From contig CAZUKY010000006.1 in NCBI GenBank assembly GCA_964621085.1, positions 1-52,542 of the forward strand: a DNA stretch of 52,542 nt. Direction: 5' to 3'. Below the pieces are notes generated by a model. The model worked only from the letters and a program-made list of their open reading frames with translations. It did no database searches and was not told the DNA's origin. Both the position numbers and the translations under genes were made by a program. Origin of the DNA: an uncultured Gammaproteobacteria bacterium. GTDB lineage: Bacteria; Patescibacteriota; Patescibacteriia; JACQRZ01. Below, piece by piece: positions 20,873 through 52,542 of this stretch (position 1 is its first letter; each line of letters starts with the position of its first letter).

Positions 20873-21640
20873 ATGCGGCCGATTTGGTCAGGATCGATCA
20901 GTTTTGGTCTCGTGAACATCCCAGTCAAACTGTACAGTGCTATCGACGAGGGCGGGTTGGACTTCGACCTGATCCACGCGCGGGACAACGGGAGGATTCG
21001 GTATGCACGCATGTGCCGTGCGGAGGAGAAGGAGGTTCCATGGAATGAGATCGCAAAAGGATATCAGTACCGCGAGGCGGAATATGTCGTGCTGACCGAT
21101 GAGGATTTTGTTCGCGCAAACGTTTCCAAGCAGAGCGCAATCCGCATTGCCGAGTTTGTCGACGAGCGAGCGGTCGAAAGCGTGTATTATGAAAAGCCGT
21201 ATTATTTGGAGCCGGAGGGCGGGGCAGACACGGCATACGCTCTCTTGCGTGACGTTATGCGGACTGCCGGAAAGGTCGGGTTGGGGACGTTCGTGATGCG
21301 TCAGCGGGAAAAACTCGTCATTATCCAACCGCGCGGGAAAGGCATTCTTTTGGAGCAACTGCGTTTCGCTCAGCAGATTCGCGGCATGGATACGCTGCAT
21401 CTTCCCGCCGAAGAAACGGAGAAGCGTGCGCGTGACATGGCCCTGAGCTTACTTGAAAAAATGGCAGCGCCGTTTGATCCCGCAAAATATCGGGATACCT
21501 ATACCGATGAGTTGCTTGAGATCATCGCCGAAAAGGCGAAGGGAGTGCCGATCGTTCCGCGCGGCGAGGTTCCACAGCCTACGCCCGTTGCAAATCTCAT
21601 GGAAATGCTCAAAGCGAGCCTGGAGCAGGACCGGCGATAA
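20873..21640 (+). CDS. ku: Non-homologous end-joining protein Ku
   Basis: MRPIWSGSISFGLVNIPVKLYSA is the canonical bacterial Ku N-terminus. 255 aa. Confidence 0.92.
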   Translation: MRPIWSGSISFGLVNIPVKLYSAIDEGGLDFDLIHARDNGRIRYARMCRAEEKEVPWNEIAKGYQYREAEYVVLTDEDFVRANVSKQSAIRIAEFVDERAVESVYYEKPYYLEPEGGADTAYALLRDVMRTAGKVGLGTFVMRQREKLVIIQPRGKGILLEQLRFAQQIRGMDTLHLPAEETEKRARDMALSLLEKMAAPFDPAKYRDTYTDELLEIIAEKAKGVPIVPRGEVPQPTPVANLMEMLKASLEQDRR

Positions 21641-21650
21641 CCCTGTCGTT

Positions 21651-23498
21651 ATGCCGTTTCCGCGTTTCATTCGCCCCATGCTCGCGCGGACTGCAGACGC
21701 GCCATTTTCCGACGACGAGTGGCTCTACGAGGTAAAATGGGACGGCTATCGCGCCATTGCCGAAACGGACAATCATTCGGTTGCGCTCTACTCGCGTCAT
21801 TTTCAGCCATTCGAAAAAAAATTTCCCTCGATTGCGAACGCGCTCCGGACACAGGCGCCCTCCGCGGTTCTTGACGGTGAGATCGTTGCAGTTGACAGTC
21901 AGGGGATTCCGCGATTCCAGCTCTTGCAGGAATACGCAAGGACCTATCAAGGAACGGTGCAGTACCGCGTCTTTGATGTCCTCAGAGAGGCGGGGCGCGA
22001 TATGACAACACTGCCGCTCATCGAGCGGAAAAAAACACTCGCCCATATCGGCCGTTCCTTTCGCGCACCGCTTGCCATAGGGGAGCATGTTGTCGGGAAG
22101 GGGATCGAGTTTTATCAGGCGGTCTGTGCTATGGGTCTTGAGGGTGTTATGGCAAAACGCTGCGGGAGTGCGTATCAGTCCGGCATCAGGTCACGCGACT
22201 GGCTCAAGATTCGTGCCATCAAGCGCCGTGAAGCGATCATTTGCGGGTTTACGGAAGGTCGCGGTTCCCGGGAGTATTTCGGTTCGCTCGTGTTGGGCGC
22301 CCATCGCAATGGCAAGCTCACGCATATCGGGAATGTCGGCACGGGTTTCAGCGAGACGGGGCGCGCCGTTCTTGCGGAGCGACTGCAGATGCTGAGGCGT
22401 CCCACTTCGCCCCTGGCAGGGGGCATGCCGCTGCGGGGCGTTGTTCATTGGGTTGAGCCGATGCTTGTCTGTGAAGTATCTTTTACCGAACAGACGCGCG
22501 AGGGCCGCCTGCGGCATCCGGTCTTTGTCGGGTTGCGCGAAGACAAGATGCCGCAAGAAATTGTGTTTGAAGACGAGCCATTGTTCGAATTTATGCCCAT
22601 CCGCACGGAACGACTGGCGGCAAAAAATCGCGACAAAATTTTTTGGCCCGAAGAAAAATACACGAAGGGCGACGTTCTTGATTATTACGCGGCGGCAGCG
22701 GATCTGCTTCTGCCGCATCTGCGGGGCCGTCCGCAGAATCTGTTCCGCCAACCGGACGGGATCGATGGCGTTGCGTTTTGGCAGAAAGATATCAGCGACG
22801 GCATGCGCCATCTTGTTCCTTCGGTCCGCATTCGGTCTGAAGGCGAGCATCGGGATATCGCTTATGCAATCATCCGGGACACCGCGTCACTGCTTGCGCT
22901 TGTCGACGCAGGATGCATCGAGCTTCACCCGTGGCATTCCCGCGTGGGCAGTCTTGATCGCCCTGATTACTGCCTGATCGATCTTGATCCGCTCGACATC
23001 GCTTTTTCCGCCGTCATCGACGTTGCGCAGTGCGCGTATGAACTTTTTTCCCGACTCGGGATCAGCGCCTGGTGCAAGACATCCGGAGCGACGGGGCTGC
23101 ATATCTGTATTCCGTTGGGCGCGCGCTACTCGTATCAGCAATCGCTGCTATTCGCAAAGATCATCGCGTTTACGCTCCATCGGCGGCTTCCGTCGATCAC
23201 AAGCACTCTGCGAAATCCTCGTGCCCGGAAGGGGAGAGTCTATCTGGATGCGCTGCAGAATCGATTCGGCCAAACGATGGCCGCACCGTATTGCATTCGA
23301 TCTCGGCCCGGTGCCCCGGTCTCTATGCCGCTGCGCTGGAGCGAGGTCTTGCCGAGGCTGGACCCAGGTGCCTTCACGCTTCGTACGGCGCCAGATCGCA
23401 TGCGGCGTATGGGGGATCTCTGGAGGGGTATGCAGGGAAGCAGGCTATCGATGGAGTCGGCGCTCGCTGCACTGAAGGAAGAGAGTGAGCGCCGTTGA
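21651..23498 (+). CDS. ligD: ATP-dependent DNA ligase D, ligase + polymerase/primase domains (no phosphoesterase domain seen)
   Basis: ATG at 21651 (MPFPRFIRPMLA), 10 nt after the ku stop. Adenylation motif EVKWDGYR. C-terminal AEP domain with IDLDP and SGATGLHI. Confidence 0.9.
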   Translation: MPFPRFIRPMLARTADAPFSDDEWLYEVKWDGYRAIAETDNHSVALYSRHFQPFEKKFPSIANALRTQAPSAVLDGEIVAVDSQGIPRFQLLQEYARTYQGTVQYRVFDVLREAGRDMTTLPLIERKKTLAHIGRSFRAPLAIGEHVVGKGIEFYQAVCAMGLEGVMAKRCGSAYQSGIRSRDWLKIRAIKRREAIICGFTEGRGSREYFGSLVLGAHRNGKLTHIGNVGTGFSETGRAVLAERLQMLRRPTSPLAGGMPLRGVVHWVEPMLVCEVSFTEQTREGRLRHPVFVGLREDKMPQEIVFEDEPLFEFMPIRTERLAAKNRDKIFWPEEKYTKGDVLDYYAAAADLLLPHLRGRPQNLFRQPDGIDGVAFWQKDISDGMRHLVPSVRIRSEGEHRDIAYAIIRDTASLLALVDAGCIELHPWHSRVGSLDRPDYCLIDLDPLDIAFSAVIDVAQCAYELFSRLGISAWCKTSGATGLHICIPLGARYSYQQSLLFAKIIAFTLHRRLPSITSTLRNPRARKGRVYLDALQNRFGQTMAAPYCIRSRPGAPVSMPLRWSEVLPRLDPGAFTLRTAPDRMRRMGDLWRGMQGSRLSMESALAALKEESERR

Positions 23499-27463: not shown

Positions 27464-28774
27464 CTAGCTGACATCGCCGAAAAGAAATGGAATGCCGAGG
27501 CGTCGGCGGGCAGTTTCGCCGGCCAGCACTCTGCCGTGGCGCAGCGGGACATCGCCGCGATCGCCTTCATGCTGAGCGAATTTTTGCGCGGCAAAACTTG
27601 AACCCAAAAAAACGCTGTACTTTCCGTAGCGCTCGCGCAACCGATCGACGCCGTCATAGATACGCGACATTTTTTCTATCGCAAGATGCTGACCGAAAAG
27701 ATCGAGCTGGGCATTTACGTCCTCGGTGAGTTTTCCGAGTGTGACTCCGGTTGCGCGATACGCATGCCCCGGTTGATAAATGTCTGAAAAAATCTTTTCT
27801 GCAATGTCGATGACTTTATTGGGGAATGCCGTTGGGCGGGAGAGGGTGATGCGCATTCCGAAATGGCGGAAGTCCTGCGTGCGAAGCACGAACGATACCT
27901 CGCGCGGCGCCAGCCGGTGCCGGCGGGCTTTGATGCAGGCATTTTCGATATTCTTCGAGAGTTGCGAAAAGACGAATGACGCATCGCTTGTCGGCGGCGT
28001 GAAGGTTTTGAATTTTTGGATCGAGACGGCGGTCCGCTTCTCGTCGGTGCACACATCCATGACAGCTCTGCCGCGCAACTCTTGCCAAATCTCGTAGAAC
28101 GGCTTGGATAGCCGGTCTTTCACCCAGTCTTCGCTCATGCGCGCAAATTGCAGCGCTGTCCGGATACCGAATTTGGCGAGATACGCACTCGTTTGCGGTC
28201 CGATGCCCCAGACCTTTTCGATCGGCAACTCTTTCAGATAAAGGTGGATGTTCTTGCCGGCTATTGCCGTGAATCCCGCCGGCTTTCGCCACTTCGATCC
28301 GATCTTTGCAATCACCTTCGTCGGCCCCAGGCCGATCGAAAAGGTGCAGCCGAGTTCTGTCGCAAGGTCGCGTTGGATCGCTTGGGCGATCTCCTGATAG
28401 GACATCCTCAGTGGACGACGGAGTCCAGTAATGTCAGCAAAACACTCATCAATACTATATTCTTCCACAGCAGCAGTCCTGCGGCGGACAATGGAGAAAA
28501 ATCGTTTTGAATAGATGCTGTAGGTTTCATAGTCGGAGGGGAGGATTATGGCGTCAGGACACACTTTTAAGATTTCGAAGATGCGCATGCCGCGGGTCAC
28601 GCCGCGCGCTTTCGCTTCATAGCTCATCGATGCGGCGATGCCGCGCTCCTTGCCGGTGACGACCGGCTTGCCCTTGAGCGAGGGATCGCGTGCCTGTTCG
28701 CACGAGGCGAAAAATGCGTCGCCGTCGATGTGAAGAATCGCCCTGGGAAAAGAGGAGATGGAGAGGGGAGACAT
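27464..28774 (-). CDS. Y-family DNA polymerase (DinB/UmuC-like translesion polymerase)
   Basis: ILHIDGDAFFASCEQ N-terminal catalytic motif, SIDECFADIT, and a 436-aa length. Directly downstream of lexA. Confidence 0.9.
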   Translation of the reverse strand: MSPLSISSFPRAILHIDGDAFFASCEQARDPSLKGKPVVTGKERGIAASMSYEAKARGVTRGMRIFEILKVCPDAIILPSDYETYSIYSKRFFSIVRRRTAAVEEYSIDECFADITGLRRPLRMSYQEIAQAIQRDLATELGCTFSIGLGPTKVIAKIGSKWRKPAGFTAIAGKNIHLYLKELPIEKVWGIGPQTSAYLAKFGIRTALQFARMSEDWVKDRLSKPFYEIWQELRGRAVMDVCTDEKRTAVSIQKFKTFTPPTSDASFVFSQLSKNIENACIKARRHRLAPREVSFVLRTQDFRHFGMRITLSRPTAFPNKVIDIAEKIFSDIYQPGHAYRATGVTLGKLTEDVNAQLDLFGQHLAIEKMSRIYDGVDRLRERYGKYSVFLGSSFAAQKFAQHEGDRGDVPLRHGRVLAGETARRRLGIPFLFGDVS

Positions 28775-40212: not shown

Positions 40213-40857
40213 TTAGCGCACGATAACATTCACGTGGAATGGCTGGATATAGGGCAGACAGGGTTCGCCAGGCGGGCAGAACGGCTCTCCGCGCGCGACA
40301 ATGGTGGCGCTACCGGGGAATTGTGCCCGATATACGGCCTGAGTGTGCGCAGAGAATCCGCCGGCGATTTGCGGCAGAACGGAAGGGTTGGTGGGGCGCA
40401 CCTGCCACTCGAGATTGCCGCCGAGCCGGAGGACAACGGTCGTGCCGGAGCGGACAAATACCGTTGTGTTGTTGTCCGCAAGCGTTATGACGCGCCGATC
40501 CTCAAAAGGGAAGTATGGGGGTATGGGAGTAGGAACGGGGGGTGGAAGGGGCTGTGGAATGGGTTGGGGGAATCCCGTCTGCCACCACCACCATGGCACG
40601 TGTTGGCGATGGGCGCGCCACCGCCAATCCGGATGCCACCGATGATCGAATCGGTGATCGAATGGCGGTCGATGGCGCGGTCCCATGCGGCGACCATCGT
40701 CATCGTCGCGATCGCCACGGAAGATGCGTGGATCGAGACGAATGTCGCCGCGCACATCAACATCCCCGCGAACCTGGCCGAGTGCGGCGTTCGTCGGCAC
40801 GAGCGCTGCCGCGAGGGTGAGGAAAAGCAGCGCAGAAAGCGCTTTTGTGCTTCTCAT
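40213..40857 (-). CDS. Secreted protein: signal peptide, Arg/His/Trp-rich segment, Pro-rich linker, C-terminal Ig-like domain
   Basis: Internal ATG at 40857 (MRSTKALSALLFLTLAAALVPTNA). The rest of track ORF 40213..41601 is antisense to the 40963..41583 gene. The C-terminal domain is paralogous to 20079..20513. Confidence 0.65.
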   Translation of the reverse strand: MRSTKALSALLFLTLAAALVPTNAALGQVRGDVDVRGDIRLDPRIFRGDRDDDDGRRMGPRHRPPFDHRFDHRWHPDWRWRAHRQHVPWWWWQTGFPQPIPQPLPPPVPTPIPPYFPFEDRRVITLADNNTTVFVRSGTTVVLRLGGNLEWQVRPTNPSVLPQIAGGFSAHTQAVYRAQFPGSATIVARGEPFCPPGEPCLPYIQPFHVNVIVR

Positions 40858-40962
40858 AGAGCGGAGTCGAATGATTATGAATAATGATCGTATCTCTAAT
40901 ACGGATACCAGGTCCGGATGTTTAGAGGGTAAAGCGACAGGCGGTTTAAACAAAAATATTGT

Positions 40963-41583
40963 ATGTTTGCGCGCATACCTTTCAGCGGCGGGACGATTGG
41001 CGCGATTCTGCGGATACCGCAGAGTGCCCGCGGCTGCGTCATATTCGCCAACGCGGCTGTCACGGCGCGGTTTTCCGAGAAAAATAATTACGCCGCACAT
41101 CTTCTTTTTGAGCGAGGGTATGCCGTACTGACCGCCGATCTCTTGTTGGCACACGAGTGGGGGGCGGAGTTTTGCTTTAATATTCCGCTGCTTGAAGCTC
41201 GGCTGGATGCAGCAACCGATTGGGTGATGGGTCGCGCAGACATTCGATCGCTTCGGATCGGGTATTTCGCTACGCACACGGCCATTGCAGCGGCCCTTGC
41301 CCTGTCGGCGCGCCGAACCGGAAAGATAGGGGCGATCGTGGCGCGAAACGGACGGATCGATCTCGCATTCGATATTCTGGAACGCGTAACGACGCCGACC
41401 CTCCTTTTCTATTCCGGAGGTAATGACATCAGTATCGCGCATGCCGAGCGGATCGTCGGCCTCATCCGCGCGACCGTAGAGGTGGATGTCGCGCCGAGTG
41501 CCACGCATCTGTTTCGCGAGCGTTCGACCATCGAACGCATTATGGATTTGAGTGCAAACTGGTACGACCGGCATCTGAAGTGA
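40963..41583 (+). CDS. Dienelactone-hydrolase-like alpha/beta-fold protein, apparently lacking the nucleophile motif
   Basis: Overall pattern GxVIFA...RIGYFxxxTxxAAAL...ARNGRIDLA...TLLFYSG...SATHLF matches DLH-like proteins. GxSxG reads ATHTA, and HGSG reads ANAA. Confidence 0.7.
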   Translation: MFARIPFSGGTIGAILRIPQSARGCVIFANAAVTARFSEKNNYAAHLLFERGYAVLTADLLLAHEWGAEFCFNIPLLEARLDAATDWVMGRADIRSLRIGYFATHTAIAAALALSARRTGKIGAIVARNGRIDLAFDILERVTTPTLLFYSGGNDISIAHAERIVGLIRATVEVDVAPSATHLFRERSTIERIMDLSANWYDRHLK

Positions 41584-41643
41584 ACATATTGACACTGCCA
41601 TGACGCTGAACTACCATGCGAGCACGGATGAGGAGGCCGACTC

Positions 41644-45403: not shown

Positions 45404-46057
45404 ATGACCAAGAACAATATGTATCTTATAATCGGAGTCGTTATCGGCATAATAATTGTGGGCGCTATCGTGTTTATGCAGCGGCAGTCGAACGGGAATT
45501 CGGGAACTCCGAACGTTTCAAAGGAGTCAGAGCAGGGCGCTTCGCTCGCCAAAAAGGGTCCGCCGTCCGAGATTGACGCGCGGAAGGCGTATTCTGCCGT
45601 TTTGCGCACGGATAAAGGCGATATCACCATTGAACTGAATGCCGCCGAGACGCCCATTACGGTCAATAACTTCGTTGTGCTTGCCCGTAAACAGTTTTAT
45701 AACGGCACGCCGTTTCATCGGGTTGTGAAGGGTTTCATGATCCAGGGCGGCGATCCGAAGGGCGATGGTACGGGGGGTCCCGGGTATGAGTTTGACAACG
45801 AGCCGTTTACGGGCGAGTACGTTCGCGGCACGGTCGCGATGGCAAATGCCGGCAAGAACACGAACGGCAGCCAGTTTTTCATTATGCACGGCGATGTGCC
45901 GCTTCCCAAAGAGTATGTCATCTTCGGAAAAGTGACGGCTGGTATGGAGGTCGTTGACGCCATTGCGACTGCTGAGGTGGAGCCGAATGAGTTCGGTGAG
46001 AACTCAAAACCGCTCAAGCCCGTAACGGTCACATCGGTCGAGATACGGGAAAAGTAG
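45404..46057 (+). CDS. Peptidyl-prolyl cis-trans isomerase (cyclophilin type), membrane-anchored
   Basis: N-terminal TM helix. FHRVVKGFMIQGGDP, GTVAMANAG.NTNGSQFFI. Confidence 0.92.
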   Translation: MTKNNMYLIIGVVIGIIIVGAIVFMQRQSNGNSGTPNVSKESEQGASLAKKGPPSEIDARKAYSAVLRTDKGDITIELNAAETPITVNNFVVLARKQFYNGTPFHRVVKGFMIQGGDPKGDGTGGPGYEFDNEPFTGEYVRGTVAMANAGKNTNGSQFFIMHGDVPLPKEYVIFGKVTAGMEVVDAIATAEVEPNEFGENSKPLKPVTVTSVEIREK

Positions 46058-46193
46058 CTGGGACGAGAGAGGATTGCAGGACACAAAAGACTTATACACA
46101 GAAAAGTCCTCCTGACGAGTTTTTTTAGGTATATACTAGGTGTATGTATGAGGCATACACCACATCCTCGTATCCTTTATTATTTTGATACGT

Positions 46194-46220
46194 GAAAACG
46201 TTGACGCGTTTTCTTTTTTT
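46194..46220 (+). terminator. Terminator-like hairpin 16 nt upstream of the giant gene's ATG
   Basis: GAAAACG-ttgacg-CGTTTTC followed by TTTTTTT. Confidence 0.5.
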
Positions 46221-46235
46221 ATTCAAAGGAACTTT

Positions 46236-49200
46236 ATGAGCACTCGAGCACGGCGTTTTCGTTCGCTCCAAGCGGCGATCTACCACCTTACCATCGCCTC
46301 CATGCTTGCTTGGTCCCTGGGGCCAGCCGGCGTCCATGCCCTCGTGAATTCGGGCGCATTCAGCATTTTTTCTCAAGACCAGACGATCAGCCCGTTGAGC
46401 TCGTCAACGGCTGTCTTGGAGTTTGTTTCGGAACGAACCAGTCAGGATACCATTCATGAGGTCCGAGTGAATGTTAATCCGTCAAACGGTTTTGATCCAA
46501 ATACTGACCTTTCCCCGATCAGGACTGACGAGCAGTCGGGTATCGCGTTATACAAGGATGTTGACGGGGTTGGCGTAGCCGGCGAGTTCGAGGCGACAGA
46601 TACCTTTTTGCCTCTTGGTTCTACCGCTCAACCGCATCGCGTCGGAAAGATCACGCCTACTGGGACGACAACACTTGCGACGCCCGGCGCGCTCAATCTT
46701 TCTGCCGGAGACCTCGTGTTTACAAAAATCGGTTCTGGCGGATCGCTTTCCGTAACAGGTGCAGCGCCGTTTGAAGAATACGCATGGCACATGGTAACGA
46801 CGGGTGGCACCGGCACAACTGCACGGTACGATGGAGCTCCCAATGCCCCCTTATATACGGGCGATCGGATCAGTGCGAGCAACCGTTTGAGTCAGTTCAC
46901 GCCGGACCAGACAGGGGCATTCACTGTGCCGGCAAGCGGCGCAATCACGCAAAACGGCACGTACGCAACGCCCGCACTTGGCGATATCGTCGCGTACACG
47001 GTTGGCGTATCTTCGATGCGCTGGGGTTTGGTGACAAATAGTACCCTGCAAGCGGGAAGTTTTGCGGTCAATGGCCGCGTGCTTGCCGCAGGCACGTACC
47101 GGATCAGCAAGCTGACTGGCGCGTCAAGTACCTATACCGTTCCTTCTTCTGGCTCGGTCACAACCGGTGGAACAGTCAATACATATGCCAACCCGGCACT
47201 CGGCGATATTGTCTTATTTCAGCAAGGGACATCGGTTGCTCGATGGGGAATCGTCACAAACGCGACGTTGGACAATGGGGTGGGCGTTTTTGCCATTAAC
47301 GGCACGCCGCTTCCTCTCGGCAGCTATCAGATTAGCAAATTGACACAGTTTACGCCGCTTGGTGCCTCCACGGATGATAGTGGACTGGCAATCAGCGCGG
47401 GAGATCTTCTGCTTGGCATGATTACGAAAAATCCCCGCAATCCAAAAGTGGATTGGAATGTGGTTACCACGGGGGCGAGCGGCGTTGCATCAAACACGCT
47501 CCGAATCCAGGACGCTACCGAACCCCCCATTTTCGGGCATCATCGGTCCCTTCTTCCAAGTGCAGCTGTTGTGAGACTGACGCCGACACAGACGACGTTG
47601 AATAACACCCCGACCCTTACTGTCGCTGTCGGAGACATTGTTCTGAATTCAAAGACAGCAAGTGTAACCACATATGATACGCGCGCGTCCGAGTGGCAGA
47701 TGGTAACAACAGGCGGAGAAGCGGGAGTATTGAAGCCTGCGCGTATCAATGGATCATCTCTGAGTGATAAGGCGGTGTACAGCACCGGTCCCCTGAGTAT
47801 TTTTAGCCCGACTGCGCGCGCCATTCTTACGGTGCCGGGGGAAGGTACTGTGACCGTGGATAGCGGCGACTATACCGTGCCGGCTGTGGGAGATATCGTA
47901 TTGTATCAGACCGGCAATAATGTTGCGGCAAAATGGGGCATCGTTACGAATGCGACACTGACGAATGGTGCAGGCGTTTTTGCCATCGACGGAAAGCCGC
48001 TTGCCGCCGCGACGTACCATGTCAGCCACGTTGCCGGCCAGTCGAGTGCATTCACTGTCCCAATTTCAGGTGATGTTGTGAAGGGAGGGGGTGTTGATAC
48101 GTACGCGAATCCTACTCTTCACGATCTCGTTTTAGTGCAACGTGGGGCAGAACAGGCTGAATGGGGCATCTTAACGGATACGACGCTGACGAACGGCGCC
48201 GGCCTTTTTTCCGTCAATGGAACGCCATTAGCCCCAGGATCGTACCGTATCAGCAAACTCACGGCATATAATCCGACAACAGCGCTCGTCAGCGATCCCA
48301 ACCTCCTCCTGACGGCCGGTGACGCGTTCTTCGCCCTCACGACCGACTTTCCAAAAAAGCACGCCTACGACTGGAATATCGTATGGACGGGCGCAACCGG
48401 CGTTTCAAGTTCGGCATTGCGGCTGAGCGATATTTACAAGGCATCATCGGCCGCGCGCGCATTGGCAGCGCCGCAATTCGGATCCGTTGCGCAGCTGGTG
48501 CTTCAAACTCCGGACGAGCCGCAGCTGAGTGAGTTTGGCGTCCATATTGACGATAGCTACTATGTCGTAGCGCGTACCGGAGCGACGGCGATGGCAGGAC
48601 GGTCATTTTATATAGGAATGGGATCTGATGCAGTTCTTTTTGACGGACCGCGTTTCATCTCTGGAGACAAAGATGGTGCAAGTGCTGGATTTACCGTTTC
48701 CGGCAATGAGATTGGTGTCCAGTCGATAGCTTCCCAGTCGCAAACGCTCGGAGCAGCGAGTCAGCCGACACCGATTCTCGGCATGAATCTTAACCAAGCC
48801 GGGTCCTTGATGAAGCGAGTGCGTGTTTCCGTCTTGCCTTCAAACGGATTCGTTTTGGGAGACCTTGCCGCACTCGGAGGAGACCAGAGCTCGGGAATAG
48901 CGCTATATCGCGATAACAAGGTTCCCGGACAGGGAACGCAGGGGGTGTTTGATGCCGCAGTTGATATGGTTTTGCCTGCCGGAGTGCAAGCGGTCCAGCA
49001 GCGCTTTGCCAAGCTCACGCTTGGAGGGACGAGGATATCAACGGTTCCAGTGAGCGGCAACTTCCCGACTGAGGACATGAACGTTTCGGTTGGCGATATC
49101 CTGTTTGCAAAAATCGGCCATGCAACCGCCAGCAACCTTGCCGACCAGCGTTACGAGTGGCATCTGGTGAAATCCGCCGGCAACCTGAAAACGGGCGGGG

Positions 49201-52200
49201 GATGGGTCTACGGCCGCGGTTCATTGGGCGATGCAAAATTCACTAACTCATCGCGCGTGACCCGACTCGTTCCGGAATCGACGGGAGAATACGTTATCAA
49301 CGGCACAAGCAACACGATTCCCAGCGCCCTTGCTGTTGGCGATATCGTATTGGCATATCATGAAGATACTGACTCGAGAGCTAACTTGGCGAACATCTCA
49401 GATCGGAAGGATCCGCGCCCGCAATGGGGAATTGTAACAGCATCATTCAGTGGTACTGTTGCTCAGATCAATGGAAAGAACCTACGGGACGGGACGCATC
49501 GGATCAGCAAACTCGGGTCGCTGACAGCTTCGATCACCGTCAACGGTTTGAATGCGATTACCCCTAATGGAACTTACACCACGCCGAGCGTTGGGGATAT
49601 CGTTTTGTATCAAAAAGGGACGGAGGATGTGCGGTGGGGCACCGTGACGGCCTTGGCGCTGGAAAACGGTTCTTTCGCCATTAATGGTCTTCCGCTTGAG
49701 GATGGCACCTGGCGCATCAGCAAGTTGGATAACGCAGACAGTACTTTGTACGGCGCCATGAGCGAGACGGTTGAGAATGGGCAATATGTCATCAATACGG
49801 GCGATGTCGCCTTTGTGAACACCGCGTCGAATCCGATGCGTCCCGTATTTGATTGGCACATGGTGACGACGGGTGGGACCGGCGCAGCATCGGCCGCATT
49901 GCGTCTGGACGATCAGCAAAGTGCCCCCTCGTATACGCAGGTTATCATCATCACTCCCAATGCGCCCGAAATGCTTCCCAACGATGATATTGGCGCAAAT
50001 GCAGGATCAGACTTTTTCCTGGCAGCCAGAACCGCAAACAATCCGGGACACGGCCGCAGCTTTGCGCTGCGCCTTGGCCCGGCAGACGTGGTGCTGACGG
50101 CAAACAGTCCCCGCCACACGCCAAGCGATGTCACTTCTGCAACCCATTCCATCAATAATCCGCCCCTTTCGTTTTCCGGCGGCGGCCCAGGGAACGGCAA
50201 TAGCTCCGTACCGGTCGAAGCACTTATCGATATTACGGCAAACCAAGATCTGAATGGCGCGACGGTCACGACAGCGAACGTGCGGCTTCAGAAGTGCGCC
50301 GGCGCGTCGGATGCGAGCGCCTGTGCAACGCCAGAAGAGGCAAACCTGTGCGCATCGGTCGGATTGCTCAACAATCGAAATATACGTTGCAACCTCGCGG
50401 AAAATACGCGTCTGGAAAAAAATACCACGTATCGGTTTACGGTTGCGACAGGCGTCCAGGGCGCAACAAATGGATCCTCGCTTGCGCAAGACCTTTCGCG
50501 AATCTTCCGCACCGCCTCGATCGATCCGAACGAGACGGGCGGCATCACGACGCCGCTTCGCGTCATGGACTTTTTCCCGCAAGCTGGTGCCTCCAACGTA
50601 CCGCTCAACGTCAAGCTTGTCGCGCTCTTTGAGAAGTTCGGGCCCGAGGGCGATTTGAAGGCCGATGGGAGCGCACAGGCGATCAACAATCTTGCGAATG
50701 TCTCTTTGCGGCTCGTTGCCAATTTCGCTCCGACCGGCGATAACCTACTGACAAACGCCAACCAGCTCGCGTGGAGTTCGCAAGGGCGCTTTCTGGCGGT
50801 AACACCTCCGCAAAACCTTTCCGCGCAGACGCAGTATGATTTCTGCATCAGGGCGGCGCTGCAAAACACCCAAGGACAGGCACTCGGTTCGGATCGATGC
50901 ATCCGTTTTACGACCGGAACGAGCGCAGATACGACTGCTCCCGCTTTGCGCACGACCAATCCAACCTCCCCGGCCGCAGGAGAACAAAACGTCAACCGCT
51001 TTATTGAGCGGATGGAACTTGCATTCAGTGAGGCACTTAACCCTTCTACGGTTACGTCAAATACTGTCCGTCTCTATATCGACAATGGGGCGGATGGCGG
51101 TACGGCAAGCGACGGAATCCGCAACGGCGCAGAACCGACGCTTGGCTCGAACGAGCTCTCGCTCTTCTTCGACCAGCGGCGAATGACGGCAGTCCTTGGT
51201 CCGACAACACCCCTTCTTGCCGCTACGCGCTACTGTTTCGAAGTAACAACGGGTGTGACCGATGTCGTCGGGAACGCGCTCGCTGCCGCGAGCCAGGACA
51301 AATGCTTCACGACCGGCAATCAGACTGACACAATCGCGCCAACAGTGGTCTTTGCGGATGCGAACAACTTTTCGCTTGCCGTTGCTTTTTCGGAAGCCGT
51401 CCGTTTTTCTGATGCTACAACAGGAACGAACTACAGCCTTTCCTGTCCTGTCGGCAATACCGTCAAATTGGACGGCAAACCGATTCAATACATGCCAGAC
51501 AGAAAAGAGGCCATCATAACAAATCTTGGCCTGCCGACAGGTCAGGACTGCGAATTGACGATCTCGGGCATCAAAGATCTTGCAGGGAATACGATGCAGC
51601 AAGCAACATCGGCGTTTAAGGTAAAGGACGCAGCAACCGAGAGTTTCGTCGGCGGCGGCGGGGCTTCGGAGGACTTCCATACAGGAAAGAACTTTGCCGA
51701 GTTCGCGAGAAATCCCGAGTACTGCGGGCCGGCAAACAGGGGTGCGGGCGCGACAACTCCGTTCGGGTGTGAGTTCCCGGCACCCTCAGCGTTGCCGGTC
51801 GGGTCGAGCTTTACACTGCTCTTGCCATCGGGATTCGATGCGTCGGGCGCATCGAAAGACGCATTCATGAGCAAAGATCTGAACGGTCCGAACGGACCGG
51901 GCGAACCCTCGTTTACCGTTACAAGCGCGAGCGGTTCCACGATTGTTTTGACGACAACAGGAGCTGCCATTGCCCAGGGTGAACGGCTCATGTTCAGGTT
52001 GAACGGCATTGTGAATCCGACGACGCCAAAAACCGATCAGCGAGTGAGCGTTGTTATAAAAGATGAGAACGGTAAGACGCAAAAAACCATAAGTACCGCG
52101 CCGTTCAGTATTGATCAGGCTGGAAGCCGAAGTATTGTTGTGAATGTATACAAGGACACGAACGGCAACAAACAGAAGGACGCAAACGAGGGTATTGAGA

Positions 52201-52542
52201 ATGCAAAGGTCTTCTGTGACCAGCGCGGATCATTCGGCGGCGGCGGATTTTCCGGACACCTCGAGGCGACGACGAACAATCAGGGTGTTGCGACATTCGC
52301 GGGCGTCCACGATGGAGAATACGGCTGCGGCCTCCAATATGATCCGACCGCATTTGCCGATCTGCAATCCGAAGGAGATTTTCAGACGGCTTTCGTGAAT
52401 GGACAGAACGCGACGCTGGATATCCGCTTCAAAGACCTTTCGGCGACCGGCCGCAGCCTTGCTGCATCGATCACGAGCTCGGCAGCGCTCTCGAGCGAGA
52501 AGGTTGACGTGTTCTGCCACGCGGGCGGGTTTGGCACCGAGT
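46236..52542 (+). CDS. Giant secreted repeat protein, >2,100 aa, 3' end beyond the window
   Basis: I translated frame 0 from the ATG at 46236 to nt 52542 and found no stop. The nearest upstream in-frame stop is at 46149. From 49873 onward the track's plus-strand ORFs lie only in frames 1 and 2 (46784..47041 is also frame 2), consistent with a stop-less frame-0 ORF. Signal-like N-terminus MSTRARRFRSLQAAIYHLTIASMLAWSLGPAGVHA. Conserved internal repeats hold this frame throughout. Confidence 0.85.
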   Translation, partial: MSTRARRFRSLQAAIYHLTIASMLAWSLGPAGVHALVNSGAFSIFSQDQTISPLSSSTAVLEFVSERTSQDTIHEVRVNVNPSNGFDPNTDLSPIRTDEQSGIALYKDVDGVGVAGEFEATDTFLPLGSTAQPHRVGKITPTGTTTLATPGALNLSAGDLVFTKIGSGGSLSVTGAAPFEEYAWHMVTTGGTGTTARYDGAPNAPLYTGDRISASNRLSQFTPDQTGAFTVPASGAITQNGTYATPALGDIVAYTVGVSSMRWGLVTNSTLQAGSFAVNGRVLAAGTYRISKLTGASSTYTVPSSGSVTTGGTVNTYANPALGDIVLFQQGTSVARWGIVTNATLDNGVGVFAINGTPLPLGSYQISKLTQFTPLGASTDDSGLAISAGDLLLGMITKNPRNPKVDWNVVTTGASGVASNTLRIQDATEPPIFGHHRSLLPSAAVVRLTPTQTTLNNTPTLTVAVGDIVLNSKTASVTTYDTRASEWQMVTTGGEAGVLKPARINGSSLSDKAVYSTGPLSIFSPTARAILTVPGEGTVTVDSGDYTVPAVGDIVLYQTGNNVAAKWGIVTNATLTNGAGVFAIDGKPLAAATYHVSHVAGQSSAFTVPISGDVVKGGGVDTYANPTLHDLVLVQRGAEQAEWGILTDTTLTNGAGLFSVNGTPLAPGSYRISKLTAYNPTTALVSDPNLLLTAGDAFFALTTDFPKKHAYDWNIVWTGATGVSSSALRLSDIYKASSAARALAAPQFGSVAQLVLQTPDEPQLSEFGVHIDDSYYVVARTGATAMAGRSFYIGMGSDAVLFDGPRFISGDKDGASAGFTVSGNEIGVQSIASQSQTLGAASQPTPILGMNLNQAGSLMKRVRVSVLPSNGFVLGDLAALGGDQSSGIALYRDNKVPGQGTQGVFDAAVDMVLPAGVQAVQQRFAKLTLGGTRISTVPVSGNFPTEDMNVSVGDILFAKIGHATASNLADQRYEWHLVKSAGNLKTGGGWVYGRGSLGDAKFTNSSRVTRLVPESTGEYVINGTSNTIPSALAVGDIVLAYHEDTDSRANLANISDRKDPRPQWGIVTASFSGTVAQINGKNLRDGTHRISKLGSLTASITVNGLNAITPNGTYTTPSVGDIVLYQKGTEDVRWGTVTALALENGSFAINGLPLEDGTWRISKLDNADSTLYGAMSETVENGQYVINTGDVAFVNTASNPMRPVFDWHMVTTGGTGAASAALRLDDQQSAPSYTQVIIITPNAPEMLPNDDIGANAGSDFFLAARTANNPGHGRSFALRLGPADVVLTANSPRHTPSDVTSATHSINNPPLSFSGGGPGNGNSSVPVEALIDITANQDLNGATVTTANVRLQKCAGASDASACATPEEANLCASVGLLNNRNIRCNLAENTRLEKNTTYRFTVATGVQGATNGSSLAQDLSRIFRTASIDPNETGGITTPLRVMDFFPQAGASNVPLNVKLVALFEKFGPEGDLKADGSAQAINNLANVSLRLVANFAPTGDNLLTNANQLAWSSQGRFLAVTPPQNLSAQTQYDFCIRAALQNTQGQALGSDRCIRFTTGTSADTTAPALRTTNPTSPAAGEQNVNRFIERMELAFSEALNPSTVTSNTVRLYIDNGADGGTASDGIRNGAEPTLGSNELSLFFDQRRMTAVLGPTTPLLAATRYCFEVTTGVTDVVGNALAAASQDKCFTTGNQTDTIAPTVVFADANNFSLAVAFSEAVRFSDATTGTNYSLSCPVGNTVKLDGKPIQYMPDRKEAIITNLGLPTGQDCELTISGIKDLAGNTMQQATSAFKVKDAATESFVGGGGASEDFHTGKNFAEFARNPEYCGPANRGAGATTPFGCEFPAPSALPVGSSFTLLLPSGFDASGASKDAFMSKDLNGPNGPGEPSFTVTSASGSTIVLTTTGAAIAQGERLMFRLNGIVNPTTPKTDQRVSVVIKDENGKTQKTISTAPFSIDQAGSRSIVVNVYKDTNGNKQKDANEGIENAKVFCDQRGSFGGGGFSGHLEATTNNQGVATFAGVHDGEYGCGLQYDPTAFADLQSEGDFQTAFVNGQNATLDIRFKDLSATGRSLAASITSSAALSSEKVDVFCHAGGFGTE
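46701..47513 (+). repeat. Protein-level super-repeat 1 (units A-B-B-C) of the giant protein
   Basis: A 46701-46820 (GDLVFTKIG...EYAWHMVTTGG). B 46971-47114 and 47193-47342 (GDIVxx...RWGxVTNxTL..G.FAxNG..L..GxYxISKL). C 47394-47513 (GDLLLG...VDWNVVTTGASGVASNTLRIQD). Confidence 0.7.
47622..48431 (+). repeat. Protein-level super-repeat 2 (A-B-B-C)
   Basis: A 47622-47726 (GDIVLNSK...SEWQMVTTGG). B 47880-48032 and 48111-48260. C 48312-48431 (GDAFFAL...YDWNIVWTGATGVSSSALRLSD). Confidence 0.7.
49083..49913 (+). repeat. Protein-level super-repeat 3 (A-B-B-C)
   Basis: A 49083-49199 (GDILFAKIG...YEWHLVKSAG). B 49326-49514 and 49584-49727. C 49794-49913 (GDVAFVN...FDWHMVTTGGTGAASAALRLDD). Confidence 0.7.
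50208..51623 (+). other. Four consecutive SbsA/Big_5-like Ig domains within the giant protein
   Basis: Domain starts at about 50208, 50553, 50928 (DTTAPALRTTNPTSPAAGEQNV...LAFSEALNPSTVTSNTVRLY) and 51327 (DTIAPTVVFADANNFSLAVAFSEAV). Each ends in a ...GNxL/...FTTG-type strand. Confidence 0.55.
52131..52334 (+). other. SdrD-B / Cna-B-like domain within the giant protein
   Basis: SIVVNVYKDTNGNKQKDANEGIENAKVFCDQ...ATTNNQGVATFAGVHDGEYGCGL matches the VxxDxNGNGxxDxxExGxxxVxV...TTxxxGxYxFxxLxxGxY pattern. Confidence 0.55.

Follow-up and report, generated by a model that had tools for sequence, protein, structure and literature searches.

The window analysed here is the whole 52,542-nucleotide stretch of contig CAZUKY010000006.1, and its last 6.3 kb (46236-52542, forward strand) hold a real gene, cut off by the end of the contig after its 5' two thirds, whose product is a giant, probably secreted surface protein. 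Translation of this interval from the ATG at 46236 (frame 1) yielded 2,102 codons up to the window end with no stop; about 82 stops were expected from the base composition of the region, and the probability of meeting none is approximately 5e-37. The other five frames over the same interval contained 29-100 stops each, and their longest open runs were 107-261 codons. A preliminary description of this DNA had claimed the uninterrupted frame of about 2,102 codons, open to refutation by a single in-frame stop, and had called it by far the largest gene of the window. Both statements agree with the translation, in which no in-frame stop lies between 46236 and 52542, and with the size of the next-largest open reading frame (ORF), which encodes 897 amino acids. 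The same description had attributed the absence of the gene from the supplied ORF track to its running off the contig, and the lister's own description agrees: ORFs that run off an end are left out, and for that reason the giant gene is missing. The ORFs that were listed between 46.1 and 52.5 kb were short and rich in arginine, serine and proline, as had been reported, none of them exceeding 235 amino acids. In those overlapping the giant gene, arginine was the commonest residue and the three residues together made up about 27%, an arginine-rich composition that is typical of wrong frames. The giant protein itself was rich in threonine, glycine, alanine and serine, with few charged residues. 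The practical lesson is that ORF tracks omitting end-truncated ORFs conceal the largest genes of fragmented metagenomic contigs.

The ATG at 46236 is likely the true start of the gene, because the sequence AAGGA (46226-46230) lies five bases 5' of it and the N-termini of related proteins begin at the equivalent point. The nearest upstream in-frame stop is located at 46149, and between the two a TTG (46185) is the sole alternative start in this frame. The start codon and the first 35 residues (46236-46340, +) have, by eye, the pattern of a Sec-type signal peptide, with a basic n-region (MSTRARRFR), a hydrophobic core (TIASMLAWSLGPAGV) and a cleavage-like site, V-H-A followed by L; a signal-like N-terminus had already been noted, and this leader is conserved in relatives. 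The upstream leader (46194-46235, +), recognized by consensus matches only, comprises a terminator-like hairpin (46194-46213) with trailing Ts and then the AAGGA as ribosome-binding site. The hairpin, with a stem of 8 bp and a T-run after it, is placed 22 nt 5' of the ATG of the giant gene and 137 nt past the stop of the preceding gene, and could either terminate that gene or serve as a leader attenuator. The preceding gene (45404-46057, +), directly 5' and on the same strand, encodes a peptidyl-prolyl isomerase of the cyclophilin type that is anchored in the membrane by its N-terminus and may be a foldase acting outside the cytoplasm on exported proteins, for instance the giant one. Relatives do not share this neighbour: in their loci L002 and L007 the upstream gene is that of an HhH-GPD glycosylase.

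The domain map of the protein was based on tiled self-comparison and on profiles built from the giant protein itself. These analyses revealed that the internally repetitive region, residues 43-1306, consists of two copies of one module, in which a predicted beta-sandwich domain of about 170 amino acids (NX) is split into an N half and an X half by a cassette of small units. What had been described as a nested repeat of about 1,250 amino acids was thereby measured at about 1,260 and resolved into a split beta-sandwich with an eight- or a four-unit cassette, twice in tandem. In copy 1, the N half (residues 43-130; 46362-46625, +; self-comparison and profiles) is followed by eight units of about 72 amino acids (residues 135-739; 46638-48452, +), which start at residues 135, 217, 289, 365, 447, 520, 597 and 671 and occur, according to self-derived profiles, in the order B-A-A-B-B-A-A-B, and then by the X half (residues 740-830; 48453-48725, +; profiles and alignment to relatives). 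In copy 2, the N half (residues 830-916; 48723-48983, +; self-comparison and profiles) precedes four such units (residues 923-1226; 49002-49913, +; profiles and the module model), starting at residues 923, 1006, 1089 and 1160, of which the outer two are of type B, the third of type A and the second intermediate; the X half closes the copy (residues 1227-1306; 49914-50153, +; profiles, alignment and the NX model). One Trp is invariant among the units and the pairs Gly-Asp and Val-Thr are nearly so, with the consensus GDIVLYQxG...WGIVTNATLxxGxFAINGxxLxxGTYRISKL for type A and AGDxxF...NP...YxWHMVTTGxTGxxSxALRLDD for type B, and the repeats are 30-58% identical at the protein level.

The N, X and unit profiles were also mapped across all relatives and the N-to-X spacing was measured. 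It was 12-41 amino acids in 68 copies, 301-333 in nine and 630 in copy 1 of the window, with a handful of copies at intermediate values. Because this spacing is bimodal, N and X are read, from sequence, as the halves of what is normally one element of about 150-190 amino acids, a minority of copies carrying an insert of about four units and, here, also one of eight. When the second N half of the window protein was spliced directly to its X half, the construct aligned colinearly with 42 contiguous NX domains, and the splice point fell at a conserved 'PxW' hairpin region that the split copies do not have. Tertiary structure prediction of this construct with AlphaFold2 gave one all-beta domain (predicted local distance difference test, pLDDT, 91.7; predicted template modelling score, pTM, 0.88), in which the junction falls within the turn between strands 90-97 and 105-112; N and X are accordingly modelled as sharing one fold, with the insertion predicted at a hairpin. 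The whole module (residues 826-1310), modelled from an eight-sequence alignment, was likewise all-beta (pLDDT 67.8, pTM 0.72). A combined alignment of NX and cassette was rejected for modelling, because in contiguous NX domains MAFFT placed the X half wrongly. Since the units of nearly all complete proteins are arrayed in sets of four, be it within NX, after NX or in proteins that have no NX, the four-unit cassette is probably one evolutionary module, and probably a structural one as well.

Neither NX nor the unit matched any entry of Pfam, NCBIfam, PHROGs or the PDB sequences, in line with the earlier statement that the repeat region could be assigned to no family. Searches of the predicted models with Foldseek returned weak fold resemblances. 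The closest PDB folds to the NX model were N-terminal carbohydrate-binding domains of sialidases, cohesins and sandwiches of the integrin thigh/calf type, at 7-12% identity. The top PDB match of the module was a phage depolymerase (E 2.9e-3; template modelling score, TM, 0.18), and among viral models (BFVD) phage baseplate and tail-fibre proteins led, with a best E of 9e-7 and TM-scores of 0.08-0.23. We regard these model-based resemblances as generic beta-rich similarity. For practical purposes NX and the unit are both unclassified, and they are two new domain families worth curating.

The region that follows the modules begins with a Gly/Asn-rich linker (residues 1307-1330, +; domain map) and four Big_5 Ig-like domains (residues 1331-1432, about 1473-1566, 1593-1699 and 1714-1802; 50226-51641, +), delimited with Pfam and an own profile. 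Big_5 (PF13205), the sole Pfam match of the giant protein, scored 97.2 bits against a gathering cut-off of 23.6 (E 1.2e-27) over four stretches, which places the protein in this family. The first Big_5 domain contains a four-cysteine insert (QKCAGASDASACATPEEANLCASVGLLNNRNIRC; 50295-50393, residues about 1354-1386), with an equivalent in relative P0007; its sequence suggests two extracytoplasmic disulfides and an extracytoplasmic location. Next comes a beta-rich domain with no Pfam match (residues about 1803-1962; 51642-52121, +), identified by alignment and conserved in relatives P0004, P0008 and P0015, and then a region of the SdrD_B/Cna-B type, that is prealbumin-like (residues about 1963-2102; 52122-52542, +), which is cut by the window end. 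In a segment scan, SdrD_B (PF17210) reached 16.3 bits on residues about 1971-2049, below its cut-off of 29.7 (E 0.011), and the colinear segment of P0008 (residues 1432-1517) exceeded that cut-off with 31.0 bits. Of the Ig-like and Cna-B-like modules claimed in the preliminary description, the former are therefore plainly present, four times over, and the latter correspond to a sub-threshold match whose counterpart in a relative passes.

The protein is not an orphan. An exhaustive phmmer search of 1.84 billion cluster-representative proteins recovered 49 representatives at E<=1e-3 and eight at E<=1e-30, most of the 49 being unnamed or 'hypothetical' and found in Uhrbacteria, Doudnabacteria, Omnitrophota and others. 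Relatives P0003-P0008 matched the window protein with E between 8.5e-111 and 2.7e-42 and have the same part order, with tblastn against the loci in agreement, and thus belong to one family with it. The top relatives are giants of 4,962, 3,383 and 2,594 amino acids whose parts are colinear with those of the window protein, and identity to the closest ones is 31-49% over hundreds of residues. The order shared by the closest giants is a Sec-type leader, an NX domain split by a four-unit cassette, Big_5, the unassigned domain and an SdrD_B-type domain. Two of these proteins have names, MBI4599645.1 of Candidatus Uhrbacteria (3,383 amino acids, 'Ig-like domain-containing protein') and OGE88900.1 (UniRef A0A1F5PKD6) of Candidatus Doudnabacteria (about 2,590 amino acids); further close giants are the unnamed protein P0003, of 4,962 amino acids, and one on contig OBEQ012501153.1 (L007), the closest relative seen, with 49% identity over residues 3-471. 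Scans of genomes and metagenomes with a short alignment of A-type units recovered the same Uhrbacteria and Doudnabacteria loci, one 'Gammaproteobacteria' contig and two contigs of one metagenome, L007 among them, while scans of genome, metagenome and viral contig collections with the whole protein found no relative. The 'Gammaproteobacteria' contig (L003, positions 485-2317) is 5.5 kb long, is binned as 'uncultured Gammaproteobacteria' and encodes a relative with 39% identity to residues 4-446 of the window protein; it is probably a mis-binned Patescibacteria contig.

By their sequence pattern, the leaders of the relatives are also of Sec type, with an AxA-like site just ahead of the first NX domain. 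The form with a WSLGPA motif and an AxA site was found in P0003-P0007, P0014 and P0023, and within it the core motif TIASxxLWSLGPA (46281-46325, residues 16-30 in the window protein) is kept throughout this cassette-bearing subfamily but not in NX-only relatives, so that, judged from its distribution, it might be a subfamily-specific sorting signal. In a Pfam analysis of the relatives, P0004 and P0008 each had Big_5 and, in five to six copies, CarboxypepD_reg; SdrD_B/SpaA was present in P0008 only, and fn3 together with a C-terminal PG_binding_1 in P0004 only. P0008 ends in unassigned repeats. No LPXTG sortase signal was found at the C-termini of the full-length relatives P0003, P0004 and P0008. 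Residues 1473-2043 of the window protein align to residues 940-1499 of the 2,594 of P0008, and residues 1529-2095 to residues 1640-2252 of the 3,383 of P0004. Because the window protein aligns colinearly inside these longer chains, some 1,100 amino acids of it would lie beyond the window.

Other relatives carry only one of the two new domain types. NX domains unaccompanied by cassettes form tandem arrays of 6-11 copies in proteins of Omnitrophota and other lineages, the NX-only arrays including an Omnitrophota protein and a VWA-containing protein. The giant genes of Omnitrophota treated in a published account code for other types of protein. A word-indexed search with residues 1-1310 returned, among the matches listed, two LamG-domain proteins that share B-type units. 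The cassette-only relatives P0001 and P0009 carry or adjoin LamG/CBM_4_9 domains and stand beside RHS/YD-shell toxin genes. Their loci (L001, 2552-9988, and L006, 1201-15055) share a NifU_N-like small protein, CBM_4_9/LamG proteins, RHS/YD-shell toxin genes and transposases, and L006 additionally holds radical-SAM enzymes and a glycosyltransferase. A phage origin of the cassette-only proteins was considered and is unsupported, as they had no matches to phage structural PHROGs.

Genomic context analyses revealed a cellular gene content of the window, including P-type ATPases, Ku, LigD, DinB, YkuD, Dus, an extracytoplasmic function (ECF) sigma factor and an ATP-binding cassette (ABC) transporter, with no tRNA or Rfam match in the window and no synteny between it and the relatives' loci. 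Searches for proteins identical to the neighbouring cyclophilin, under two choices of start, and to the sigma factor returned no match. Ku and LigD (ligase plus primase-polymerase) form a non-homologous end-joining pair at 20873-23498 (+), and a polymerase of the DinB type (27464-28774, -) is encoded nearby, as are two HMA-domain P-type ATPases. Within an ORF of 462 amino acids with no Pfam match (40213-41601, -), a signal-like stretch (MRSTKALSALLFLTLAAALVPTNAALG) precedes a region rich in Pro, Trp, His and Arg; judged from this sequence, the true start is probably the internal Met there, and the product a small secreted protein. The organism is probably a Patescibacteria bacterium (candidate phyla radiation, CPR) related to Uhrbacteria or Doudnabacteria.

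Taken together, we consider it probable that the giant protein is a Sec-exported, cell-wall-associated fibrillar surface protein of a CPR organism, most probably an adhesin, which presents its cassettes from split domains. This reading is preferred because the protein combines a putative Sec leader, beta domains rich in Thr, Ser and Gly, conserved Cys pairs and an Ig-like/prealbumin-like stalk, the hallmarks of a fibrillar surface adhesin. In this model, the C-terminal part beyond the window would hold the exported protein on the cell wall; the corresponding part ends in fn3 and PG_binding_1 in P0004 and in unassigned repeats in P0008. Beta-sandwiches of the Big_5 Ig-like and SdrD_B types, joined in relatives by CarboxypepD_reg-like ones, would form an outward-reaching stalk, and the distal, N-terminal end would bear the two split NX beta-sandwiches, from the beta-hairpin tip of each of which a cassette of eight or four small beta units of about 72 amino acids would jut sideways. 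The cassettes are the best candidates for ligand- or host-binding elements, because the arrangement of NX plus cassette follows the split-domain logic of RTX adhesins, in which the domains that bind ligands extend from split Ig-like domains accompanying them (PMC12077191). Should the organism be a CPR bacterium, its natural use for such a protein would be to attach to a host cell. We infer export, wall attachment, adhesive function, ligand and taxon alike.

Several points weigh against the adhesin model. The 3' end of the gene, and hence the mode of anchoring, lies outside the window, and the taxon is taken solely from what relatives, 30-49% identical, are called. The first sequence of the NX model is an artificial splice of two window segments, and the module model, from its alignment of eight sequences, is of moderate quality, so that how the cassette sits against NX is a prediction only. 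Foldseek searches against the PDB gave no match at E<=1e-3 for either the NX or the module model, and no known ligand-binding fold.

Whether such a protein would bind a partner at all is where an alternative reading departs, namely that of a structural envelope or S-layer-like sheath protein whose tandem beta-sandwiches tile or cover the surface. The cassette-free NX arrays of Omnitrophota and others do look like structural spacers, and the composition, rich in Thr, Gly, Ala and Ser and poor in charged residues, would suit a sheath. We nevertheless find this unlikely, given that no SLH or other S-layer domain was detected in the window protein (Pfam, NCBIfam) or in P0004, P0008 and P0010, that the architecture, one long chain in which heterogeneous domains follow each other and insertions are distal, is typical of fibrillar adhesins, and that the family is rare and patchy (49 in 1.84 billion), unlike a core envelope component. 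The layout of an adhesin or S-layer-like protein proposed in the preliminary description is thus upheld in its first half, by the leader and the Big_5/Cna-B-type stalk, to which relatives add CarboxypepD_reg, fn3 and the peptidoglycan-binding end of P0004, and finds no backing in its second.

Less probable still is a surface enzyme or toxin-delivery protein, with a catalytic or toxic domain in the 3' part and carbohydrate-binding and spacer modules in the visible region. The best resemblance of NX is to a sialidase carbohydrate-binding domain (6mnj, 7qy9; TM 0.52-0.54), the cassette-only P0001 and P0009 are associated with carbohydrate-binding domains and toxin genes as described above, and the stretch where such a domain would be encoded is the one outside the window; but that resemblance is weak (Foldseek E 4.8e-3, 12% identity), and the colinear full-length P0004 and P0008 contain no catalytic or toxin Pfam domain, ending instead in fn3 and PG_binding_1 or in unassigned repeats. 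Derivation from a phage, the protein being a tail-fibre or receptor-binding protein of a prophage and not an adhesin of the cell, would account for the phage depolymerase, baseplate and tail-fibre proteins that head the Foldseek results of the module, but we judge it highly improbable, as their TM-scores (0.08-0.23 for the viral models) denote local beta-rich similarity only, PHROGs gave no matches and viral contigs no relative, the neighbouring genes are housekeeping ones (Dus, cyclophilin, ECF sigma factor, ABC transporter), and a Sec leader and the peptidoglycan-binding C-terminus of P0004 are cellular features. Finally, an artefact, be it a pseudogene, repeats wrongly assembled or a frame open by chance, which an internally repetitive gene ending at a contig end might bring to mind, is essentially refuted by the negligible probability of such a frame, by repeats too diverged to collapse in assembly and by a part order colinear with independent relatives across all 2,102 residues.

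If the protein is a fibrillar adhesin as we propose, it bears on a question of wider scope. Host recognition and attachment by Patescibacteria are presented, in one published account (PMC12206443), as largely unknown beyond type IV pili. Very large proteins of Patescibacteria epibionts that were cultivated or observed are reported to be targeted preferentially to the surface and to be rich in adhesion domains, and giant surface proteins are obvious further candidates for host attachment (PMC13059738). The gene belongs to a rare family, and the distal region of its product is made up of two kinds of domain not represented in Pfam, NCBIfam, PHROGs or the PDB. The display of a ligand domain from a split domain is so far known from Gram-negative RTX adhesins (PMC12077191), and the models predict the same design here. 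NX and the putatively mobile four-unit cassette, of about 290 amino acids, offer concrete leads, open to testing, on how uncultured ultra-small bacteria recognize their hosts. It is possible, and we put it forward only tentatively, that this cassette is an undescribed, horizontally mobile receptor-binding module, which CPR bacteria display from split NX domains for host recognition and which other bacteria use in stand-alone LamG/CBM proteins beside RHS toxin genes. In that case, the doubling to eight units would be a way to extend reach or valency, and the cassette sequence could predict the host specificity of uncultured episymbionts.

Compared with known systems, the NX model is most like the N-terminal carbohydrate-binding domains of sialidases (Hz136, 6mnj; NanH of Tannerella forsythia, 7qy9) and cohesins, with which it shares one beta-sandwich over about 180-197 columns (TM normalized on the query for the sialidases); the likeness is at the level of fold only, with E of 4.8e-3 or worse, 7-12% identity, a root mean square deviation of 6-8 Å and no sequence match. 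MSCRAMM-type adhesins of Gram-positive bacteria (Cna, SdrD) have an N-terminal signal peptide, a distal binding region and a prealbumin-like stalk of the Cna-B/SdrD_B type, to all of which the giant protein has putative counterparts, but relatives P0003, P0004 and P0008 have no LPXTG, there is no DEv-IgG A-domain, and the SdrD_B score in the window is below the cut-off. The RTX fibrillar adhesins of Gram-negative bacteria (AhLap, FrhA, MpIBP) share with it a long chain of Ig-like extender domains and a near-distal beta-sandwich interrupted by an out-budding insert (PMC12077191). Their hallmark of a ligand domain emerging from a split beta-sandwich is found here by prediction, from the 68 adjacent and 10 separated N/X copies (the latter by about 300 or 630 amino acids) and the confident NX model. 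In contrast to them, the window protein has a putative Sec leader and an N-terminal, not C-terminal, putative ligand region, its relative P0004 ends in PG_binding_1, and NX and the four-unit insert are different, unclassified folds; RTX nonapeptide (HemolysinCabind) repeats were absent from the visible 2,102 residues at E<=1 and from P0004, P0008 and P0010 at E<=0.01. The likeness to RTX adhesins is one of analogy, not homology, and the window protein stands outside the RTX family. Its nearest kin are the giants of Uhrbacteria and Doudnabacteria, from which it differs in having two split NX domains in tandem, the first with eight units, a form seen in no relative. The giant protein is thus a homologue of these uncharacterized proteins, in which a known design, the fibrillar adhesin with split-domain display, is built from two uncurated domain families.

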